Made by a program: the position numbers and the translations under genes
The notes under the pieces: generated by a model
Seen by the model: the letters and a program-made list of their open reading frames with translations, nothing else
Databases searched by the model: none
What the model was told of the DNA's origin: nothing
Virus record (IMG/VR): IMGVR_UViG_3300025141_012107
DNA: 64,000 bases
DNA from: an uncultured virus (IMG/VR IMGVR_UViG_3300025141_012107)
Lineage: Duplodnaviria; Heunggongvirae; Uroviricota; Caudoviricetes
Direction: 5' to 3' (one strand)
Part shown: positions 54,927 to 63,374 of the stretch, piece after piece
How positions within the stretch are numbered: the first letter of the stretch is position 1
Layout of the letters: each line of letters starts with the position of its first letter

Positions 54927-54946
54927 AAATTCCCTTAGTTTTAAAG

Positions 54947-55037
54947 CGGAGACGCTGGGATTCGAACCCAGGAAGGAGCAATTCAGCCCCTTAATTGATT
55001 AGCAGTCAATCGCCTTCAACCACTCGGCCACATCTCC
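54947..55037 (-). tRNA. tRNA-Ser(GCT)
   Basis: Cloverleaf; ATTGA-CTGCTAA-TCAAT; long variable arm; GGTTCGAATCC; no encoded CCA. Confidence 0.93.
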
Positions 55038-55086
55038 TAATTTACCTATCGTCATGAAATGAATTTTACCAGACATGTAAACACAA

Positions 55087-55177
55087 AGGAAGGTAAGGGA
55101 ATCGAACCCTCGGACCCCATTTCTAGGACCACTGGTTTTCCAAACCAGCACGACTAACCAACATCCGTCTACCTTCC
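55087..55177 (-). tRNA. tRNA-Ser(GGA)
   Basis: CTGGT-TTGGAAA-ACCAG; long variable arm; discriminator T. Confidence 0.88.
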
Positions 55178-55185
55178 AAGTAGAA

Positions 55186-55279
55186 AGGAAGGTAAGGGGA
55201 TCGAACCCTTGTAACCCCTTGTTCAGGGGTTAACTGGTTTTCGAAACCAGCGCAACAAACCAACATTTGCCTACCTTCC
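55186..55279 (-). tRNA. tRNA-Ser(CGA)
   Basis: CTGGT-TTCGAAA-ACCAG; paralogue of the GGA tRNA; discriminator T. Confidence 0.88.
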
Positions 55280-55296
55280 AAGTTTTTCCAAACAAG

Positions 55297-55354
55297 AGGA
55301 GAGTATGGGATTCGTTACGGTTGCTTCGTTTTCCGAAGCTGTTCATAACTCTCC
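55297..55354 (-). pseudogene. Internally deleted tRNA remnant / mini tRNA-like hairpin
   Basis: Acceptor strands GGAGAGT/ACTCTCC and half T-arm CGAATCCCAT retained; interior is a single GCTTCG/CGAAGC hairpin. Confidence 0.55.
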
Positions 55355-55358
55355 TAAG

Positions 55359-55445
55359 CGGAAGGGACAGGAATCGAACCTGCATCACGCTTCTAACGTG
55401 AAACCGTTTTCAAGACGGCTTAGCCCGCCAATAGCAAGCCCTTCC
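55359..55445 (-). tRNA. tRNA-Ser(TGA)
   Basis: GCCGT-CTTGAAA-ACGGT; long variable arm; atypical D-arm. Confidence 0.85.
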
Positions 55446-55530
55446 TAAATATCTGTCGGGAATCCACGCTACTTGAGACCATCTGCCCTTTTTTCAAAAA
55501 GCATTGTTTGTAGTAAATTTCCTTGGCCAC

Positions 55531-55857
55531 CTACTGCCCCCATCTCATTGCCAACATTCCTGCTACTACCAAACCCAAACCTGTCCATTGCCATCCGCTG
55601 AACTTGTCTCCCGCTCCCAAATAAAGCATAGTCAACGGAAAGACAAGAAAGATTATACTATCAAAAAGAAGCCCGTCAAACAACTGCCTCTTTGAAATAA
55701 TAGATATCAACACCCACCATTGACCTAAGGCTCCCCAAAGGAAAGCCGTCCATGCCCAGAGATGTCCGCCGTCCTGATTCAGCCTAAAGGTGAAGTAGTA
55801 GTAGACGGAATACCAAACAGCTATGCATGGGACCCACCATAAATAATGATACCACAT
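55531..55857 (-). CDS. Small four-helix membrane protein (DMT/EamA-like)
   Basis: Four hydrophobic segments; GDKFSGWQWTGLGLVVAG; GGAG RBS. Confidence 0.7.
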   Translation of the reverse strand: MWYHYLWWVPCIAVWYSVYYYFTFRLNQDGGHLWAWTAFLWGALGQWWVLISIISKRQLFDGLLFDSIIFLVFPLTMLYLGAGDKFSGWQWTGLGLVVAGMLAMRWGQ

Positions 55858-55894
55858 TTTGTTTCATCTCCGCCTCCTGTCGCTGCTTCAAAAA

Positions 55895-55938
55895 GGAAGG
55901 TAAGGGAATCAAACCCTTGGACCCCATTTCTAGGACCA
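55895..55938 (-). repeat. Truncated 3'-half copy of tRNA-Ser(GGA)
   Basis: 44 nt matching 55088-55131 with two substitutions. Confidence 0.85.
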
Positions 55939-55958
55939 TTCGCTTCCTGTTATTTAAG

Positions 55959-56050
55959 CGGATAGGGAGGGATTCGAACCCTCAGATCATCAAAGACGAC
56001 CCCCTGATTAGCAATCAGGTGTCCCGCACCAGTGGGAATCCAGCCTATCC
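55959..56050 (-). tRNA. Second tRNA-Ser(GCT), atypical D region
   Basis: CCTGA-TTGCTAA-TCAGG; long variable arm; GGTTCGAATCC. Confidence 0.8.
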
Positions 56051-56142: not shown

Positions 56143-56940
56143 TTACTTGTCGTCATCTTCCTTTTTATTATCAACTACCGCCTTAAGTTTGTCAAGTGTT
56201 GCTTGAGCAACATCTTGGTCATCGTCCTGATCGTCGTCAAGCAGATGGTCGATCTTCGATGCCGCAATATCTGCTCCGGCATCATACAGGGCAGCTTTCG
56301 TACCGACATATGACCCTCTGGACATGGATATATCGGCGAATGCCCGCCGAGTACCGACCTGATCCCCCTTATAGGCCATGGTATTGCCTTGCGGGATATT
56401 CAGTCGATCAGCCGTAACAACAACATCGTGATTCGCCCCGATATAAGTAAACGTCCAGGTTCCATCCTGTTGCAGGTGCTTGAGAAGATCCGCAACCTGA
56501 TTGCCATTGTACTCTCTCGAAGCATTTTCTTCGCCATCTGTCAGGATAGTAACCATCACTTCAACGTTGATTTTCTCGTCCTGAAGTTCTTCGTCGATCT
56601 CTGCTTTCAGACGATTACAGCTTTGCCCAATGGCATCGTAAAGAGCCGTCGTACTTTCGGGAGCATACTGTTCAGCGGTCAATGGTTCGATGACATCGAC
56701 GCCTTCTTTCCAGTGGATTGATTCGACCGAACTGTTGAAAGTTATCAGGCAATAACGATGCTCTTGATTCGGGTTCTCTCTTTGCAGTTTCTGGATGGTT
56801 GTGACATTTTCGTTAAAGCCATTGACTGTTGGCTTTATTACTGAACTCATCGAAGCACTACGATCTAATATGATCAGATGATAGAACTTGATGGGGATGT
56901 TCTTGTCTCGCCCACCGACATCTAGGTTAGGGTTGGGCAT
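56143..56940 (-). CDS. von Willebrand factor A domain protein
   Basis: ILDRSASM MIDAS, TALYDAIG, ILTDGEENAS, FTYIGAN. Confidence 0.92.
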   Translation of the reverse strand: MPNPNLDVGGRDKNIPIKFYHLIILDRSASMSSVIKPTVNGFNENVTTIQKLQRENPNQEHRYCLITFNSSVESIHWKEGVDVIEPLTAEQYAPESTTALYDAIGQSCNRLKAEIDEELQDEKINVEVMVTILTDGEENASREYNGNQVADLLKHLQQDGTWTFTYIGANHDVVVTADRLNIPQGNTMAYKGDQVGTRRAFADISMSRGSYVGTKAALYDAGADIAASKIDHLLDDDQDDDQDVAQATLDKLKAVVDNKKEDDDK

Positions 56941-56998
56941 AATTTGGTTCCTTTCTTATGGTAATTGTAAACTAAACACAAACACTGAACCAAAAGAC

Positions 56999-57529
56999 CT
57001 ACTCACTCTCATTTGTCTTTGGTTCTTGGTTATCTAATCTCATCGCTTCTGGAGAAAACTGATCATAAACGTTGATTCCTGCTGATTCCAATTCTTTCAC
57101 AATGATATATGCAGCAAGTTCGTATTTATCTTTCAAGCTCCCCTTGTTGAGGTCTCGAAGATTATGGTTGATATCGGCTATCTTAACCAATGAGGCAGGA
57201 ACGTTCGTCCTCAACCTCATGATGAAATCAAAGTAGCTTTCATCCTCATCTTTCCTTCTAGTCAGACAATCAACTGCTTCAACGATTGCCATTGGGAATC
57301 CCTCTTGCCGCAAATCTACAAGAGTATATTCGCTATCCTCAACAACGTCATGCAACCATGCCACAACCTTATATAGAGGAGGAAGGACAGAATCTGCTAC
57401 TGCCTTGGGGTGAGTAATGTATGGCTGACCTCCCCACCTTGTTTGGCCATAATGAGCCTCTGTAGCGATTTTCTCGGCCTTTTCAATCAGTCCATCAATC
57501 GATTCCATCGGATCCATGATCATTCCCAA
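56999..57529 (-). CDS. HD-domain hydrolase, RelA/SpoT small alarmone hydrolase (Mesh1)-like
   Basis: AH.GQTR..G.PYITHP, AWLHDVVED, VKIADINHN. Confidence 0.88.
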   Translation of the reverse strand: MGMIMDPMESIDGLIEKAEKIATEAHYGQTRWGGQPYITHPKAVADSVLPPLYKVVAWLHDVVEDSEYTLVDLRQEGFPMAIVEAVDCLTRRKDEDESYFDFIMRLRTNVPASLVKIADINHNLRDLNKGSLKDKYELAAYIIVKELESAGINVYDQFSPEAMRLDNQEPKTNESE

Positions 57530-58616: not shown

Positions 58617-59264
58617 CTACTTGTAACTCCGAACCGCAAAGTCCTTTAGAGTTACGGACCAACTCTTCCAACGAGGGTTGTCCGAAAGAACGTAGTCCAA
58701 AACTTCCTCAGCCACAACCGTAACGACTAGCATTACGATATTTCGGGCCAAAGGATAGTCACAGACATCTCCATCTTCCGAATTTGCCGGAACTTGGTAA
58801 ACGCTGTCCCAAACGACTTCTCCATAGTCCTCGAACAAACCGGAATGCAAGCAATCGATCTTGTTCTTAGAACAATAGTCGTGGAGAACCTGCCGGGCCT
58901 CGCTGTTGTCGAACGCATCGATAACAAGCTTAGCACCCTTGAGTAACTTCTTGACGTTTTTTTCTTCAAGCTTCTTGTTTACAACGTCGATTTCCACGCC
59001 AACATCCCTCCAGATACGATTTTGCAAAGCCGTAACCTTCAAAGCTCCAACGTCGTTGTCGCCATAGACTTGAGTGTTGACGTTATGTTCGTCAACTCGG
59101 TCCATGTCGATGACGCAGATATCGCTTACGCCCTGACGGATCAGGGTCTCTACCAAGTTGCTACCCAAAGCACCCGCACCGCAAACAACGATACGAACGC
59201 CCTTGAGACGATCAATCAGACCTTCTCCACGGTAGGCGATTTCATGTGTGAATTTCTTGGCCAT
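58617..59264 (-). CDS. E1/ThiF-family ubiquitin-like-activating adenylyltransferase
   Basis: VCGAGALGS, IDMDRVDEHNVNTQ, K, LVIDAFDN..AR; candidate catalytic Cys in DVCDYPL. Confidence 0.92.
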   Translation of the reverse strand: MAKKFTHEIAYRGEGLIDRLKGVRIVVCGAGALGSNLVETLIRQGVSDICVIDMDRVDEHNVNTQVYGDNDVGALKVTALQNRIWRDVGVEIDVVNKKLEEKNVKKLLKGAKLVIDAFDNSEARQVLHDYCSKNKIDCLHSGLFEDYGEVVWDSVYQVPANSEDGDVCDYPLARNIVMLVVTVVAEEVLDYVLSDNPRWKSWSVTLKDFAVRSYK

Positions 59265-59671
59265 TTTTTCGCTTTCTTCATAATGGGTCTAACAACTGTC
59301 GGCATAACCCCCACAATTCTTTTCTTGATCATTCGAATATGTCCCTCAACGAAAGGTTGTTCGTCGTCAAAGAACCAGAAGCATCTTAGCCCATCTGCTC
59401 CCTTAATGCAACATACAAACGGTCTTCCTTCGGCAACTATCCAAGCATTCATAGTTAAGATGTCGGTTGTGCTGGGACTTGCAATCATTGAAGGATGGGT
59501 ATGAATCCAACCAATCACTCGATCAGGATCTCTCCTGACAAGTTCATGGTTGAATCCAACCCTAGCTGGGATGCCCAATTCATAAGAGATAGCGCTCGTA
59601 ACCCAAACGGGTCCGTACAGATCTCCTACCAAGATGTAGGACTCTTCGTCGCCAGTATTCATATTGAACAT
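59216..59671 (-). CDS. JAB/MPN+ metallopeptidase
   Basis: EE..., GWIHTHPS..SPSTTD JAMM motif; TGATG-coupled start. Confidence 0.85.
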   Translation of the reverse strand: MFNMNTGDEESYILVGDLYGPVWVTSAISYELGIPARVGFNHELVRRDPDRVIGWIHTHPSMIASPSTTDILTMNAWIVAEGRPFVCCIKGADGLRCFWFFDDEQPFVEGHIRMIKKRIVGVMPTVVRPIMKKAKKWPRNSHMKSPTVEKV

Positions 59672-60606
59672 CAATCGCTCCAATCTCCAGTGTAATCGTC
59701 GGTTCCTCTATCGTCTACGTCAAGATAGTTCCCGCCAACTCGGTAAATCTGGTTGCCCGTAATACCCTCTCGGATAACGCCAACCAAACTCTGCAAGTCG
59801 AAGTTCCTATCTCCACCAGACAAACAGATGCCCGCCGATTGAACAGCAAGCGTTTTCTTATCAACAGTCGAACGATGAGTTTCACCATCGACAACATACT
59901 CGACAGTATACGACTCGCCTCGCTCAACGAAACTCCTGAATCCGCCACCAGCACGATTGATTGCCGACTTTACTCGACCTTCTGCCGTAAGAGCTTCCGC
60001 CTCGACAGCAAGCCTCTTGGCTTCCTTTTCGGCCTCAACAACATCGACCAAAGCAAGGTCGTAAGCACGTCTCTGTTCCTTTGACATACTTGAAAAATCA
60101 ACGTCCTTCGGGGCAACGTTTTCTGACAAGGCATTTCTCAATACAGTTGCATGCTTGATGCTATGAGCGTCGTCGATCCTTTCGAACCAACAGTTGATGC
60201 CATCGAATCTAACACGCACTGCATCGAACAACTGCAATTCTTCCGGCAAAAGAATAGGAACAAATCCTTGAATCTTGAACCGGGAATCACCTTCGTTTGC
60301 AGGGATACCCCAGAAACGGTTGTCCTGTCGCCTGGTTGCGATCAACCTTAGAACAGGGAACAGGTTGAAGTACGTTCGCCTCTCGATCATCGTAGGCTCA
60401 CGTACAAACTCTGCGAGCTTGTAGGAAGCGGGACGGAATACGCCCCAACCCTCAAAACCTCTCGGCTTTGAAACCCGCAATGACATAACGATGTCAGCAA
60501 TCTTAACCCTGATCGCCTTATTGCGCAGAACAGGGCTGAAGAATTCCGACTTGAGGAAAACATCTTCTTCCGCTGCCAACTTTTTCAAAAGCTCATTGAC
60601 CTTCAT
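59671..60606 (-). CDS. Conserved hypothetical protein of the TROVE-Ubl operon
   Basis: 311 aa, GGAG RBS; C-terminal SAGICLSGGDRNFDLQSLVGV motif. Confidence 0.8.
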   Translation of the reverse strand: MKVNELLKKLAAEEDVFLKSEFFSPVLRNKAIRVKIADIVMSLRVSKPRGFEGWGVFRPASYKLAEFVREPTMIERRTYFNLFPVLRLIATRRQDNRFWGIPANEGDSRFKIQGFVPILLPEELQLFDAVRVRFDGINCWFERIDDAHSIKHATVLRNALSENVAPKDVDFSSMSKEQRRAYDLALVDVVEAEKEAKRLAVEAEALTAEGRVKSAINRAGGGFRSFVERGESYTVEYVVDGETHRSTVDKKTLAVQSAGICLSGGDRNFDLQSLVGVIREGITGNQIYRVGGNYLDVDDRGTDDYTGDWSD

Positions 60607-60621
60607 GGCCTTACTCCAATT

Positions 60622-60652
60622 AAAACAGGGTAGCAGAAGCTACCCTGTTTTT
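60622..60652. terminator. Intra-operon terminator/attenuator hairpin
   Basis: AAAACAGGGTAGC-AGAA-GCTACCCTGTTTT 13-bp perfect stem. Confidence 0.8.
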
Positions 60653-60678
60653 CAAGTCAAAATGTAGCTCCTTCCGGA

Positions 60679-62223
60679 TTACGCAACTTTCCTTTGAGGG
60701 AGAGTATACGACATAATTTCCATCAACAGATCGATCTTCGACGGCTTCGTCAAAAGCGGGATCAACCCCGGCAACGAGTAATAGTCGCCGTTGAAGATAT
60801 ACGCATCGTAGTCGATGTCGTTATTGCGACATCGCTGTTCCAGCGTATCCCGATGCGTCCCGCACTTAACGAACAGAACGTTCGGACGAGTGTCCATATC
60901 CTTCATGTAGTTCAATATGCTGGACAAGAACGACGGAGATCGGTTCTCACCTTCGTCCGTAATCATGATGATGTTCTCGACGTACTGCTTGTTACGTCGA
61001 AGCATCTCAATTCCGACGCCGCAGGAAGTACATCCGGTAGCAAAGATGCCATTCAGAGCCTTTTCCCACGATGCCAAATCCGTTCCGCTCGAAACAATCG
61101 GATACGCCATTTCGTCACAAGCATAGACGAACAAATCAGCGTCCATGATTGCCGAAGTCATAGCAGCAATCTGCTTACCAACTTCAATGGCGATGTTCAT
61201 CGAACCGGACTTATCGATGATGATTGCCGTAGGACGCTTGATACGTCCCTTCGACTTCAACTGAGCATCACCGATGTCCTCAAGCTGCTTGGCAACGTCT
61301 TCGTCAATATCAGTAGTCTTCTTGACCTGGGACGCTTTCATAGCCGCAACACGCTTGCCCGTCTTTGCCTTGTCAAGACGTTCCTGAATGAACGCCTTGA
61401 GGTCCGGGTTGTCGAATGCACCACGACGCTTCAACGAACCGATGTTGTTGATCAACTCTTGGTCACTCATGACCTGAACCAAAGCCAAAAGAACGGTCGG
61501 ACTCATTGCCGAGATTACCGTCGATGCGATTCGGTACGGAACCTTGTTGGCGATGATGATCTCAGCCTGCTTTGCAGCCGACTCAGTCTTACGCAGTTCC
61601 TTAACCGCCTTCAACTTGCTGTCATCAGGCGGATCTTCATCGAAGAGAATCTTTTGCGCTCGATCCGAAGGCTCAATGTGGAGAAGAGAGTAAACCCTCT
61701 TCAACGACTTTCGAGCCTGCAAAACGCAAGCGTCGAACCAAACCGGATCGTCTTCACGATCAGTCAGGTATCGCTTAACTTCCGTTGCAACAGATCGAGG
61801 AATATTCTTGCCCAGACCAGAATCCGTCAAAGCCGTTCGATGAGTCGTCTTCTGGTTGCGGCCAGTTCCAGTCGTAACCGGAGTACTGACCTTTTTCTTG
61901 CGACCGTGAATGAAGTCGATAACTCTCTCCACCTGATAAGGCGGCAGTTCACGGAGCATGGCCAGTCCAACGTCTCGGTGTCCTTCGAAGTTGCTCAGAC
62001 ACAGGTTGACGATGAACAGTTCCTTATGGTCACGGATCTCGCCATTGTCAGCATACCATGCGCCCAAACGAACGTAGAACAACGGATCTTGAGCAATCAT
62101 CTGTTCATGAACAGGATGACTTGCGCTCAGATTTCTGTGGGGAGTCATCAACAGCGTATTCAGCATCCCCAAACGAAGATCCTGTTCACTGGACGTATCA
62201 ACTTGTGCAGTTCGTACAGCCAT
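60679..62223 (-). CDS. Ro60/TROVE-like helical protein with C-terminal vWA domain
   Basis: ~330-aa helical N-terminus (DPLFYVRLGAWY..IRD, ..MSDQELINNIGSL..G) then IIIDKSGSM MIDAS, GCTS, MITDEGEN; size and Y-like RNAs upstream support the call. Confidence 0.72.
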   Translation of the reverse strand: MAVRTAQVDTSSEQDLRLGMLNTLLMTPHRNLSASHPVHEQMIAQDPLFYVRLGAWYADNGEIRDHKELFIVNLCLSNFEGHRDVGLAMLRELPPYQVERVIDFIHGRKKKVSTPVTTGTGRNQKTTHRTALTDSGLGKNIPRSVATEVKRYLTDREDDPVWFDACVLQARKSLKRVYSLLHIEPSDRAQKILFDEDPPDDSKLKAVKELRKTESAAKQAEIIIANKVPYRIASTVISAMSPTVLLALVQVMSDQELINNIGSLKRRGAFDNPDLKAFIQERLDKAKTGKRVAAMKASQVKKTTDIDEDVAKQLEDIGDAQLKSKGRIKRPTAIIIDKSGSMNIAIEVGKQIAAMTSAIMDADLFVYACDEMAYPIVSSGTDLASWEKALNGIFATGCTSCGVGIEMLRRNKQYVENIIMITDEGENRSPSFLSSILNYMKDMDTRPNVLFVKCGTHRDTLEQRCRNNDIDYDAYIFNGDYYSLPGLIPLLTKPSKIDLLMEIMSYTLPQRKVA

Positions 62224-62273
62224 GGTCTTTCTCCTTAGAAAGAGTTTTACAAATTATCGATTCGGATTCGGAA

Positions 62274-62483
62274 TTAACCGAATACAGCCTGCGGACGAAG
62301 AGTCATGTCACCGGTTTCTGCGTTGCGGTCAACAACGAAACCATTCATCTTGGTGAGAGGAGCACTGAAGTGATTAGCTACAGCCTGCTTGACGTCTTGG
62401 TCGGTAGAGAGATCGCCCACATCGATATCCTCGAAGAGAAGATCGAACGATTCTCCATTGTATCTGACGTGAAGTACTGACAT
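62274..62483 (-). CDS. Ubiquitin-like (beta-grasp) small protein ending in Gly
   Basis: 69 aa, strand-strand-helix-strand pattern, C-terminus LRPQAVFG, strong AAGGAG RBS, operon with E1 and JAB. Confidence 0.72.
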   Translation of the reverse strand: MSVLHVRYNGESFDLLFEDIDVGDLSTDQDVKQAVANHFSAPLTKMNGFVVDRNAETGDMTLRPQAVFG

Positions 62484-62528
62484 TTTTCATCTCCTTTCGT
62501 CTGCAAGCCTCAAGAGAGGCATAAAAAA

Positions 62529-62660
62529 AGCCTTGTCTAAGTTTCAGGACGGTTTCTTGGGTAACGTGCAAGATTTGAACTTGCGACCTTCACTTCCTAA
62601 TAGTGACGCTCAACCTACTGAGCTAACGTTTGTAACGTCCAAATTGTTGGAGACAAGGCT
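62529..62660 (-). ncRNA. Y-RNA-like RNA A: module replaces/extends the acceptor stem of a D-AC-T tRNA domain
   Basis: AGCCTTGTCTCCAA...AACTTAGACAAGGCT terminal stem, GGACG/CGTCC helix, TACAAAC, then D arm, TCACT/AGTGA arm, GCAAG-TTCAAAT-CTTGC; ends in T7. Confidence 0.8.
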
Positions 62661-62663
62661 AAG

Positions 62664-62798
62664 TGGGAGAGGTAGGAGTCGAACCTACGAGTCTTGCGTT
62701 TTCAGGGCAATGCTTTACCAAAAGTTTGTAAGCTACATCCCATTGGAGACGGACAAGCCGTCTAAGTCAGAATAGCTATAGCACTAAGCTACTCTCCC
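62664..62798 (-). ncRNA. RNA B: tRNA-Phe(GAA)-like with permuted Y module inserted in D-loop
   Basis: GGGAGAG/CTCTCCC-A acceptor, CTGAAAA loop, GTAGG-TTCGACT-CCTAC; ~62-nt D-loop insert with ACTTAGACGG-CTTGT-CCGTCTCCAA...TACAAAC. Confidence 0.82.
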
Positions 62799-62824
62799 AT
62801 AATTATTCAGTTTTCAAAAAGCGA

Positions 62825-62893
62825 ACGTCCAAGTTCAGGCAGCGGTCAAAGCATTCCGAAGATTGGTTTGTATGCTGTCCTTGTTGGGGACGT
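62825..62893 (-). ncRNA. RNA C: minimal Y-like module without tRNA domain
   Basis: ACGTCCCCAA...CAGC-A-TACAAAC...GCTG...AACTTGGACGT. Confidence 0.72.
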
Positions 62894-62908
62894 CAACTTA
62901 ATTTCAAG

Positions 62909-63050
62909 TGGGGGAGACAGGACTCGAACCTGTAGTCTTTCGCTTATGAGGCAAACGCTTTTCCATTTGTTTGTAAGCTACGACCTATTGGAGACGAACA
63001 AGCCGTCTAAGTTGGAATAGCTGTTTAACGTAGTTTTTAGCTACTCCCCC
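62909..63050 (-). ncRNA. RNA D: tRNA(CAT)-like with permuted Y module inserted in D-loop
   Basis: GGGGGAG/CTCCCCC-A acceptor, TTTGC-CTCATAA-GCGAA, ACAGG-TTCGAGT-CCTGT; ~69-nt insert with AACTTAGACGG-CTTGT-TCGTCTCCAA...TACAAAC. Confidence 0.82.
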
Positions 63051-63131: not shown

Positions 63132-63298
63132 AAGAAGAAACAGGCGTCCAAGTTCGAGCAGCGGTATGACATTAGTCACAGATCTTAAATCTGTTGCCTT
63201 ATCCACTTGGCTATACGTTCATGTTGGTGAACATAGTGGGATTCGAACCCACGTTGTTGTTTGTACGCTACGCCAGTAGGGGACGCCGGTTTCTTCTT
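63132..63298 (-). ncRNA. RNA E: Y-like RNA containing circularly permuted tRNA-Leu(TAA)
   Basis: GGCGTCCCCTA...AACTTGGACGCC stem extended by AAGAAGAAAC/GTTTCTTCTT; interior order T arm, acceptor 3' strand + ACCA, acceptor 5' strand, D arm, ACAGA-TTTAAGA-TCTGT. Confidence 0.82.
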
Positions 63299-63374
63299 CA
63301 CTTGTCAAAGTCGAGCCTTACGACTCTGCCCTATCTTATCAGCTTCCCAGCCACTTTCAAGGGCAATATTCAAC

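Follow-up and report, generated by a model that had tools for sequence, protein, structure and literature searches.

A 64,000-nucleotide (nt) stretch of DNA from a large, uncultured marine Caudoviricetes phage (IMG/VR record IMGVR_UViG_3300025141_012107), referred to here as the window, carries on its minus strand, upstream of a gene for a Ro60-like protein, two RNAs (B and D) in which a transfer RNA (tRNA) cloverleaf holds a long insert in its D loop. We propose, with a probability of roughly 0.6, that B and D represent a new architecture of Ro60-associated Y RNA, namely a whole tRNA mimic with free acceptor ends and tRNA-like maturation that retains a handle for the Ro protein in the D loop. 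In our best reading the class, which we named tRNA-framed Y RNAs, consists of conserved, working non-coding RNA genes. The insert of B and D has its module in common with neighboring Y-like RNAs, and relatives with the same structure lie upstream of Ro-like genes at other loci. The features that carry this proposal are as follows (positions are those of the window).

62909-63050, minus strand: RNA B (142 nt), tRNA-framed Y-like RNA with loop CUCAUAA (CAT at 62948-62946); from sequence and covariance models
62976-63022, minus strand: putative Ro-binding-type module of B; from structure, covariation in 31 relatives and a hidden Markov model (HMM) match
62969-62975, minus strand: TACAAAC of B, single-stranded, directly 3' of the module; from sequence
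62664-62798, minus strand: RNA D (135 nt), tRNA-framed Y-like RNA with loop CUGAAAA (GAA at 62703-62701); from sequence and covariance models
62731-62777, minus strand: putative Ro-binding-type module of D; from structure, covariation in relatives and an HMM match
62724-62730, minus strand: TACAAAC of D; from sequence
60679-62223, minus strand: Ro60-like protein of 514 amino acids (aa), helical-repeat ring and vWA domain with a DxSxS motif; from the predicted fold

B and D belong to an array of five structured RNAs (A to E) that follow one another from 63287 down to 62530, all on the minus strand. A 69-aa open reading frame (ORF) and then the 514-aa ORF lie downstream of the array on the same strand, which places the Ro-like gene 441-827 nt downstream of B and D.

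Cloverleaf and D-loop insert of RNAs B and D

Both RNAs have the full set of cloverleaf features, with a 7-bp acceptor stem, a D stem, a 5-bp anticodon stem, a 7-nt loop, a 5-bp T stem and a discriminator base. The acceptor strands pair at 7/7 positions in B (GGGGGAG/CTCCCCC) as in D (GGGAGAG/CTCTCCC), each followed by A73. B has the D stem GCT(A)/AAGC, a 5-bp anticodon stem with the loop CTCATAA and the T arm ACAGG-TTCGAGT-CCTGT; the corresponding elements of D are the D stem GCTT/AAGC, the loop CTGAAAA on an anticodon stem with one C.C mismatch, and the T arm GTAGG-TTCGACT-CCTAC. T8 and A9, A14, GG, TTCGA and a variable region of 5 nt are present in both. The D loop of a normal tRNA is about 7-11 nt long; those of B and D measure 77 and 70 nt, respectively, because of an insert of about 60-68 nt that ends just before TGG(A/T)A. 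An earlier note on this DNA, made from the letters alone, had described two tRNA bodies with an insert just before the D-loop GG, and this description was accurate, including the position of the insert. Overall identity between the two RNAs is 85%, being close to complete in the module and TACAAAC, whereas the anticodon and T arms differ.

The D loop runs from a few bases after A14 through stem 2, an internal loop, a capped stem 1, TACAAAC and four further bases to GG and (A/T)A. In B, stem 2 is AGCTAT/GTAGCT, the internal loop is asymmetric and contains a 2-bp helix, and stem 1 (AGACGG/TCGTCT) is capped by CTTGT; the module of D reads AGCTAT ... AGACGG-CTTGT-CCGTCT ... GTAGCT. The module is thus closed by a 5-nt loop, and the paired ends of B and D are formed by the acceptor strands and not by the module, in departure from the end pairing of Y RNAs. 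GTAGCT occurs twice in each RNA, after the acceptor strand and at the 3' side of the module.

ARAGORN called neither B nor D when intact. The Rfam tRNA model (RF00005) gave 35.4 bits for B and 33.2 bits for D (cut-off 29), with alignments that were partial and ran through the second, internal copy of GTAGCT. The expectation that tRNA finders may miss these genes was therefore borne out, and counts of phage tRNAs omit tRNA-framed genes for this reason. After the D loop was shortened in silico by a scripted grid of deletions, ARAGORN called a full-length tRNA-Met(cat) for B in 77/575 deletions and a full-length tRNA-Phe(gaa) for D in 77/547. In blastn searches the 3' half of B was 84% identical over 43-44 nt to annotated phage tRNA-Met and tRNA-Ile genes, and the 3' half of D yielded T-arm-level matches only. 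None of the Rfam intron families matched B or D at any threshold.

The module in neighboring RNAs and at other Ro-like loci

The other members of the array, and a site upstream of it, are:

63333-63360, minus strand: promoter-like site TTGAAA-16-TAAGAT with TG, upstream of A; from a consensus scan only
63143-63287, minus strand: RNA A, YrlA-like Y RNA; minimum free energy (MFE) fold, z = -4.86
62824-62894, minus strand: RNA C, short Y-like RNA without a tRNA domain, terminal stem GACGTCC/GGACGTT; MFE fold, z = -4.09
62530-62659, minus strand: RNA E, terminal module stem GCCTTGTCT/AGACAAGGC around an unpermuted 74-nt tRNA-like domain

In the MFE folds of A, C and E the 5' and 3' ends pair in the module stem, in the manner of Y RNAs. 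The 5' end of A and C reads stem 1 strand-CC(T/A)AC..-stem 2 strand-(T)ACAAAC, and the 3' end reads stem 2 strand-..GAACTT-stem 1 strand. In B and D the order is stem 2 5' half-RACTT-stem 1 5' half-cap-stem 1 3' half-CCAAT..GG..-stem 2 3' half-TACAAAC. Judged from this order of parts, the insert of B and D is the Y RNA module that makes up the terminal stems of A and C, opened at the other end. We built an HMM (H3) of the 3' half of the module with TACAAAC solely from tRNA-framed RNAs, and it matched the 5' strands of A (63285-63259, E 0.0035) and C (62892-62866, E 0.2). Its matches in B (62996-62969) and D (62751-62724) cover the 3' half of the module and the adjoining TACAAAC; H3 missed E, and homology of the module in E was judged by eye only. 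The strands ACUUGGAC and GUCC may resemble the helix of metazoan Y RNAs.

We assembled 175 loci that encode relatives of the 514-aa protein (15 viral, 80 metagenomic and 80 genomic, the genomic ones mostly Planctomycetota); the search for loci on viral contigs worked only with a protein alignment (A1), and a single-protein query gave no relative. H3 matched 177 times in these loci, every time on the strand of the Ro-like gene, and TACAAAC was found 451 times on that strand compared to 34 times on the other. TACAAAC was also invariant in a MAFFT alignment of 27 RNAs, which misaligned the 5' ends and was not used for a model.

The neighboring protein itself gave no Pfam or PHROG match, even at E up to 10. 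A structure model made with AF2 from an alignment of homologues reached a predicted local distance difference test (pLDDT) score of 84.9, and Foldseek ranks 1-12 were all Ro60, Rsr or TROVE proteins matched over the whole length (E 3.6e-13 to 1.6e-09, template modeling score 0.56-0.68). All three homologues scanned matched Pfam vWA_Ro60, two of them above the cut-off. The best match of a 32-homologue profile in the PDB was the TROVE protein of phage phiLo (9L5Y, 9KOP; E 0.019), and Rsr of Deinococcus radiodurans followed at E 0.76. The family is large, with 1920 relatives at E <= 0.001 among 8000 candidates scored. By its predicted fold and its homologues the 514-aa protein is a Ro60 relative, and the array is in this sense encoded beside a Ro60/Rsr ortholog, as is characteristic of Y RNAs. 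The proposal in the earlier note that the insert is a docking handle for the Ro-like protein is favored by the presence of the same module in the stems of the Y-like RNAs A and C and by the Ro60 fold predicted for the neighbor.

We evaluated the spread of the class with two covariance models, R1 (B and D with the proposed structure) and R2 (31 relatives). B and D are seeds of both models and scored 169.9 and 158.7 bits with R1 and 127.1 and 122.3 bits with R2. R1 found relatives in other loci at E down to 1e-16. R2 recovered 39 RNAs at 62-127 bits, eight of them outside its seed, and the next match scored 55.6 bits. The 39 RNAs are located in the window and in 22 of the 175 loci (viral 9/15, metagenomic 10/80, genomic 3/80); every one (39/39) lies upstream of the Ro-like gene and on its strand. 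We also searched IMG/VR with the pattern TACAAAC-N28-48-GGTTCGA, which gave at least 119 stretches; of 80 loci retained from these, one scored as a member of the class, on the same contig as locus L004, and the count is no measure of prevalence.

In a 31-member alignment (A5) that was fitted to the proposed structure, 95.2% of cells pair, compared to 40-50% with the partners slid by 1-3 columns. Changes on both sides occurred in 31/35 pairs, and the observed values were reached by 0/500 shuffles. Pairing was 100% in the acceptor stem, stem 1 and the T stem, 93.5% in the anticodon stem and 76.6% in the D stem. RNAalifold, unaided, arrived at 30 pairs, 26 of which have compensatory changes; they make up the acceptor, anticodon and T stems and the two helices of the module. 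The T and D arms that mark Y RNAs of the YrlA kind are present, the D stem being the weaker. The structure of B and D is more than chance, because a model of these two RNAs finds relatives to E 1e-16 and the helices covary. Since they covary as in a working RNA, we read the insert as a retained handle and not as an intron. The earlier note had named random decay of the acceptor and anticodon arms in relatives as grounds for giving up the idea; the 39 members with covarying helices contradict such decay.

For 24 RNAs whose locus contains a further member, the closest module came from that same locus in 11 cases and the closest body in none; in 15/25 the closest body was of the same anticodon class. 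Modules match within a genome and bodies match across genomes by anticodon class, which agrees with the view, put forward earlier for B and D, of one module at the same site in two tRNA bodies. Anticodon loops are 7 nt long in 37/39 members, and these 37 have T33 in 30 and a purine at position 37 in 35; CTCATAA recurs eight times and GAA at positions 34-36 nine times. The base after the discriminator is C in 39/39 (CTT in 30), and CCA follows it in 0/39. The T loop contains TTCGA in 25 of the 31 aligned members. Few members resemble tRNAs as closely as B and D; the class as a whole departs from strict tRNA rules. In A5, the six members with TGCGA or TGCAA in place of TTCGA also have no D-loop GG (6/6), which looks like a linked change of elbow partners; TACAAAC may take over the elbow contact in this subclass.

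Further features of the array concern its ends and its other RNAs. The consensus promoter scan gave four sites compared to 1.6 expected, and the site at 63333-63360 could be the start of an A-to-E transcript. A run of seven T residues (62523-62529) lies just after E. The ends of A pair as GGCGTCC/GGACGCC and then GTAGCG/CGCTGC, enclosing TACAAAC, a T arm, a closed 7-8-bp acceptor hairpin, a D arm and an anticodon-like hairpin. The loop of the closed acceptor hairpin (63200-63225, minus strand) is ACCAACAT, a discriminator-like A followed by CCA; by analogy with YrlA of Mycobacterium smegmatis, an RNase P cut of A could expose a ready-made CCA end. E was called 'Leu-tag' by ARAGORN, yet its variable loop is short; a long variable arm is the rule for tRNA-Leu of the bacterial type. 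The 821-nt array had no blastn match among GenBank phages.

Proposed pathway and competing explanations

We propose that the five RNAs would be co-transcribed from the promoter-like site near 63333-63360 to the T run after E, and that RNase P and a 3' tRNA-processing enzyme would cut B and D at their acceptor ends, also freeing C and E. The gap is 14 nt from B to C and 4 nt from D to E, and the 5' strand of another module lies within 20 nt downstream in 17/39 members, a spacing that fits release of the neighbors by tRNA-end processing. CCA may afterwards be added to B and D, because the matching viral record (G001; 122,591 bases, about 26% complete) encodes an enzyme of the CCA-adding type, a 562-aa ORF with a PolyA_pol/CCA-adding enzyme domain (G001:C1:17353-17787, outside the window, 80.6 bits). 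The insert would stay in the mature RNA, where the module and TACAAAC would bind the Ro60-like ring of the phage. The effector end would be the tRNA body, in which the acceptor end is free and an anticodon loop is present; it would engage a factor that recognizes one kind of tRNA and bring this factor together with Ro. Candidates are synthetases, modification enzymes and nucleases that target tRNAs. That the anticodon classes (CAU, GAA, NCU) are kept across genomes while the modules are matched to the genome points to partners that read tRNA identity.

Several observations weigh against tRNA-framed Y RNAs as the explanation. The Rfam YrlA model (RF02553) scored 19.8 bits on A against a cut-off of 69 and had no match on B or D up to E = 10, and the Rfam Y_RNA model (RF00019) matched nothing in the array; we infer Ro binding by the module from its position and architecture. 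Single-sequence MFE folds of B and D partly use an alternative GTAGCT hairpin, a local structure that is possible because GTAGCT is duplicated. The class is confined to the closest relatives of the window, at 22/175 loci. The D stem is the weakest helix and was not predicted by RNAalifold, and the pair counts from A5 are biased towards the structure to which that alignment was fitted.

We consider it unlikely that B and D are genuine tRNAs (Met or Ile2 for B, Phe for D), charged and active in translation, with a Ro handle that protects them, repairs them or takes Ro to ribosomes. The complete cloverleaf with A73 in both RNAs, the names Met and Phe given by ARAGORN after shortening of the D loop and the closeness of the 3' half of B to annotated phage tRNA-Met/Ile genes would suit this explanation, as would the recurrence of CTCATAA and GAA across loci, with bodies that group by anticodon class. 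B has A15-T48 and D has G15-C48, and such pairs occur in 18/31 members compared to 13.6 expected, a value reached by 8/2000 shuffles. The trailers are like those of the phage's own ordinary tRNA genes (which do not encode CCA and have CTT or TT as Ser/Leu trailers), a gene of the CCA-adding type is present, and no ordinary Phe or Met tRNA was found in the sequenced part of the record (about 26% of the phage). Departures from tRNA rules across the family nevertheless argue against decoding. Position 8 is A in 14/31 members; the members with G at T-loop position 55 have no D-loop GG in 6/6 cases, compared to 2/25 of the others, so that GG is missing from 8/31 in all; and a single acceptor group, GCGGGAG (variant GCAGGAG), carries ATT, ATT, TCT, TCT and CCT, the first of which is, to our knowledge, not a normal decoding anticodon. 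The discriminator is A in four and G in five members of the GAA class (A in seven and G in one of the CAT class), the anticodon arm is lost in at least one member (L002:2130-2243), and a 60-kDa ring at the elbow should hinder passage through the ribosome. There is a small chance that tRNAs of defined identity (Met/Ile2-, Phe- and Arg-like) receive CCA and an amino acid and yet never part from a Ro60 ring. In that case the phage would have a reserve of selected tRNAs of its own, guarded by Ro, or, alternatively, the charged bodies would bait tRNA-attacking host enzymes, synthetases or ribosomes to Ro and the linked ubiquitin-like machinery described below; Ro60 RNA surveillance would then, for the first time, be tied directly and physically to specific tRNA species.

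It is doubtful that B and D are mere tRNA-like cutting marks by which the Y RNAs on either side are freed, or that they are domains of a single long RNA from A to E. The short distance to the next module in 17/39 members, the placement of C between B and D and of E directly after D, and the single promoter-like site and single T run that bracket the array are what such a role would lead one to find, but a plain mark needs no Ro module, conserved anticodon loop or class-specific bodies, and nearby ordinary tRNA genes could serve instead. The earlier note had allowed that the insert might be excised; intron-like removal that leaves ordinary tRNA-Phe and tRNA-Met is very improbable, even though in-silico removal gives sequences that ARAGORN accepts. 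Compensatory changes preserve both helices of the insert and TACAAAC does not vary, which is what a working part of the mature RNA should show, and the same module is present in C, which has no tRNA to restore. A cut at the base of stem 2 leaves a D loop of 23-30 nt, and no known type of intron (group I/II or bulge-helix-bulge) at a known site was recognized, in line with the unmatched Rfam intron families. RtcB was not found in the 122.6 kb of the viral record, which is a fragment, and bacteria are not known to have an enzyme that splices in this way, as is also stated in bioRxiv 10.1101/312249. The same source describes a precedent for removal in algae and archaea, where tRNA genes in permuted or split form are processed to normal tRNAs. 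We give hardly any credence to B and D as decaying tRNA genes struck by a mobile Y-RNA-like element: the nearly identical modules on differing bodies would fit, and the GTAGCT repeat flanking the inserted stretch could look like a target duplication, but covariation maintains every helix in 39 members, and loci with Ro-like proteins no more than 50-62% identical to that of the window have the insert at one and the same site.

Surrounding genes, other RNA layouts and known Ro-associated RNAs

The Ro-like gene lies within a conserved cassette (58617-62483, minus strand). The other genes of the cassette are given below with the number of loci in which tblastn found relatives, counts that are affected by incomplete flanks in many of the 175 loci.

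62274-62483, minus strand: 69-aa protein; relatives in 109/175 loci
59671-60606, minus strand: 311-aa protein with an invariant cysteine; relatives in 96/175 loci
59216-59683, minus strand: JAB-type peptidase; relatives in 47/175 loci
58617-59264, minus strand: ThiF/E1-like enzyme; relatives in 66/175 loci

Homologues of the 69-aa protein have a C-terminal Gly in 98/109 cases and end in VFG in 88, as would be expected from the sequence of a ubiquitin-like protein ready for activation. The model of the 311-aa protein (pLDDT 83.7) has beta-barrel domains and a long helical hairpin. We found no family, no ESM Atlas lead and no PDB fold match at E <= 0.001 for this protein; its weak top fold matches were S1/OB-type RNA-binding domains of exosome caps, RNase II/R and Mpa. 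The region downstream of the cassette (56143-57529, minus strand) encodes a phosphohydrolase of the HD type (PHROG 990, E 5e-39) and another small vWA protein; tblastn found no relatives of either in the 175 loci.

The ordinary tRNAs of the phage in the parts examined, 54946-56050 of the window and locus L176 (G001:107400-113400), are almost all of the types with a long variable arm. Five tRNA-Ser genes are in the window, and four tRNA-Leu genes (taa, tag, cag, caa) and an 84-nt 'Cys-gca' call are just past its end. One Ser(tga) gene scored 48.2 with the Rfam tRNA-Sec model against a cut-off of 47, a label that is probably false because its anticodon is not that of tRNA-Sec.

Other RNA layouts were recovered beside Ro-like genes. 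The commonest companion is a YrlA-like form with a closed 7-bp acceptor hairpin, of which a strict rule gave 120 instances; 75 of these have ACAAAC no more than 30 nt upstream of the T arm, and the closed acceptor loop starts with NCCA in 13. A third layout, seen in MFE folds, has open acceptor ends, an ordinary D arm (TAGCTCAGTGGTAGAGC) and a capped module with TACAAAC that replaces the anticodon arm:

L130:2436-2594, L130:2601-2762 and L063:2523-2713: third-layout RNAs at planctomycete (Limnoglobus) and metagenome loci

This layout has in common with B and D the ending in an acceptor stem, the capped module followed by TACAAAC, and the T arm. The difference is that B and D keep the anticodon arm and carry the module in the D loop, whereas the third layout has the module where the anticodon arm would be, along with an ordinary D arm. 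ARAGORN also called 72-75-nt 'tRNA-Leu', 'tRNA-Ser' and 'tRNA-Asn(att)' genes beside Ro-like genes (e.g., L003:1233-1304, L016:2602-2676 and L062:2386-2460). The length of these calls rules out true Leu/Ser tRNAs of the bacterial type, and they look like the tRNA-like domains of E-type Y RNAs; if they are Y RNA domains, automatic tRNA counts are inflated in these genomes.

Potential interactors of the tRNA-like end of bacterial Y RNAs are described as not yet identified in the relevant part of one study (PMC4201824), and a passage of another refers to an 'unknown factor' (bioRxiv 10.1101/312249). The class described here has both a free acceptor end and an anticodon loop, and tRNA-framed Y RNAs are concrete molecules for fishing out such partners. 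They also indicate that a tRNA frame can take up a Ro module at more than one site and with either end open, which helps explain the origin of Y RNAs from tRNAs.

Our full-text literature search revealed no tRNA cloverleaf with a Ro module in the D loop, with the limit that reviews of Ro60 and Y RNAs may describe further layouts. The tRNA mimics usable by tRNA enzymes through a free acceptor end include transfer-messenger RNA (tmRNA) and viral tRNA-like structures, as outlined in a section of bioRxiv 10.1101/312249; as presented there, these have no tie to Ro60 and no D-loop graft, and tmRNA is without an anticodon arm. Among phages, a survey of jumbo phages devotes one sentence to TROVE proteins that have a tRNA-like partner (PMC7824862). 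Ro60 of Thermus phage phiLo binds two stem-bulge-stem Y-like RNAs, according to the main account of that system (PMC12135203; PDB 9KOP, 9L5Y). The phiLo locus resembles the window in that a phage Ro60 is accompanied by phage Y-like RNAs (Yrl1 and Yrl2) upstream; the difference is that Yrl1 and Yrl2 have paired ends and a CGAA motif, and that account, in the part concerned with their structure, describes no cloverleaf frame.

The closest known system is YrlA with Ro60/Rsr (PMC4201824, bioRxiv 10.1101/312249, Rfam RF02553), whose RNAs, in the portions of these sources that deal with them, are likewise encoded beside a Ro60-type gene, often several in a row, and join a helical Ro module to a tRNA-like domain with T and D arms; RNA A has this layout. 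YrlA RNAs are described as substrates of tRNA-modifying enzymes through the tRNA-like domain (bioRxiv 10.1101/312249), and, as far as that description goes, they end in the Ro stem and have a closed acceptor loop, with no free CCA end and no anticodon loop. B and D, in contrast, end in the acceptor stem, carry the module as a capped unit in the D loop and have a full anticodon stem-loop. YrlA of M. smegmatis, with a 7-bp acceptor stem, is reported to be cut by RNase P and to gain CCA in vivo, and charging is given as possible in principle in the pertinent section of that report (PMC4201824). The cut RNA is, like B and D, a Ro-associated tRNA mimic that offers an open 7-bp acceptor stem to tRNA enzymes. 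Its open end arises, in the reported scheme, from cutting of a closed loop and leaves two pieces of RNA, whereas B and D are each one chain with the open end built in and with an anticodon arm.

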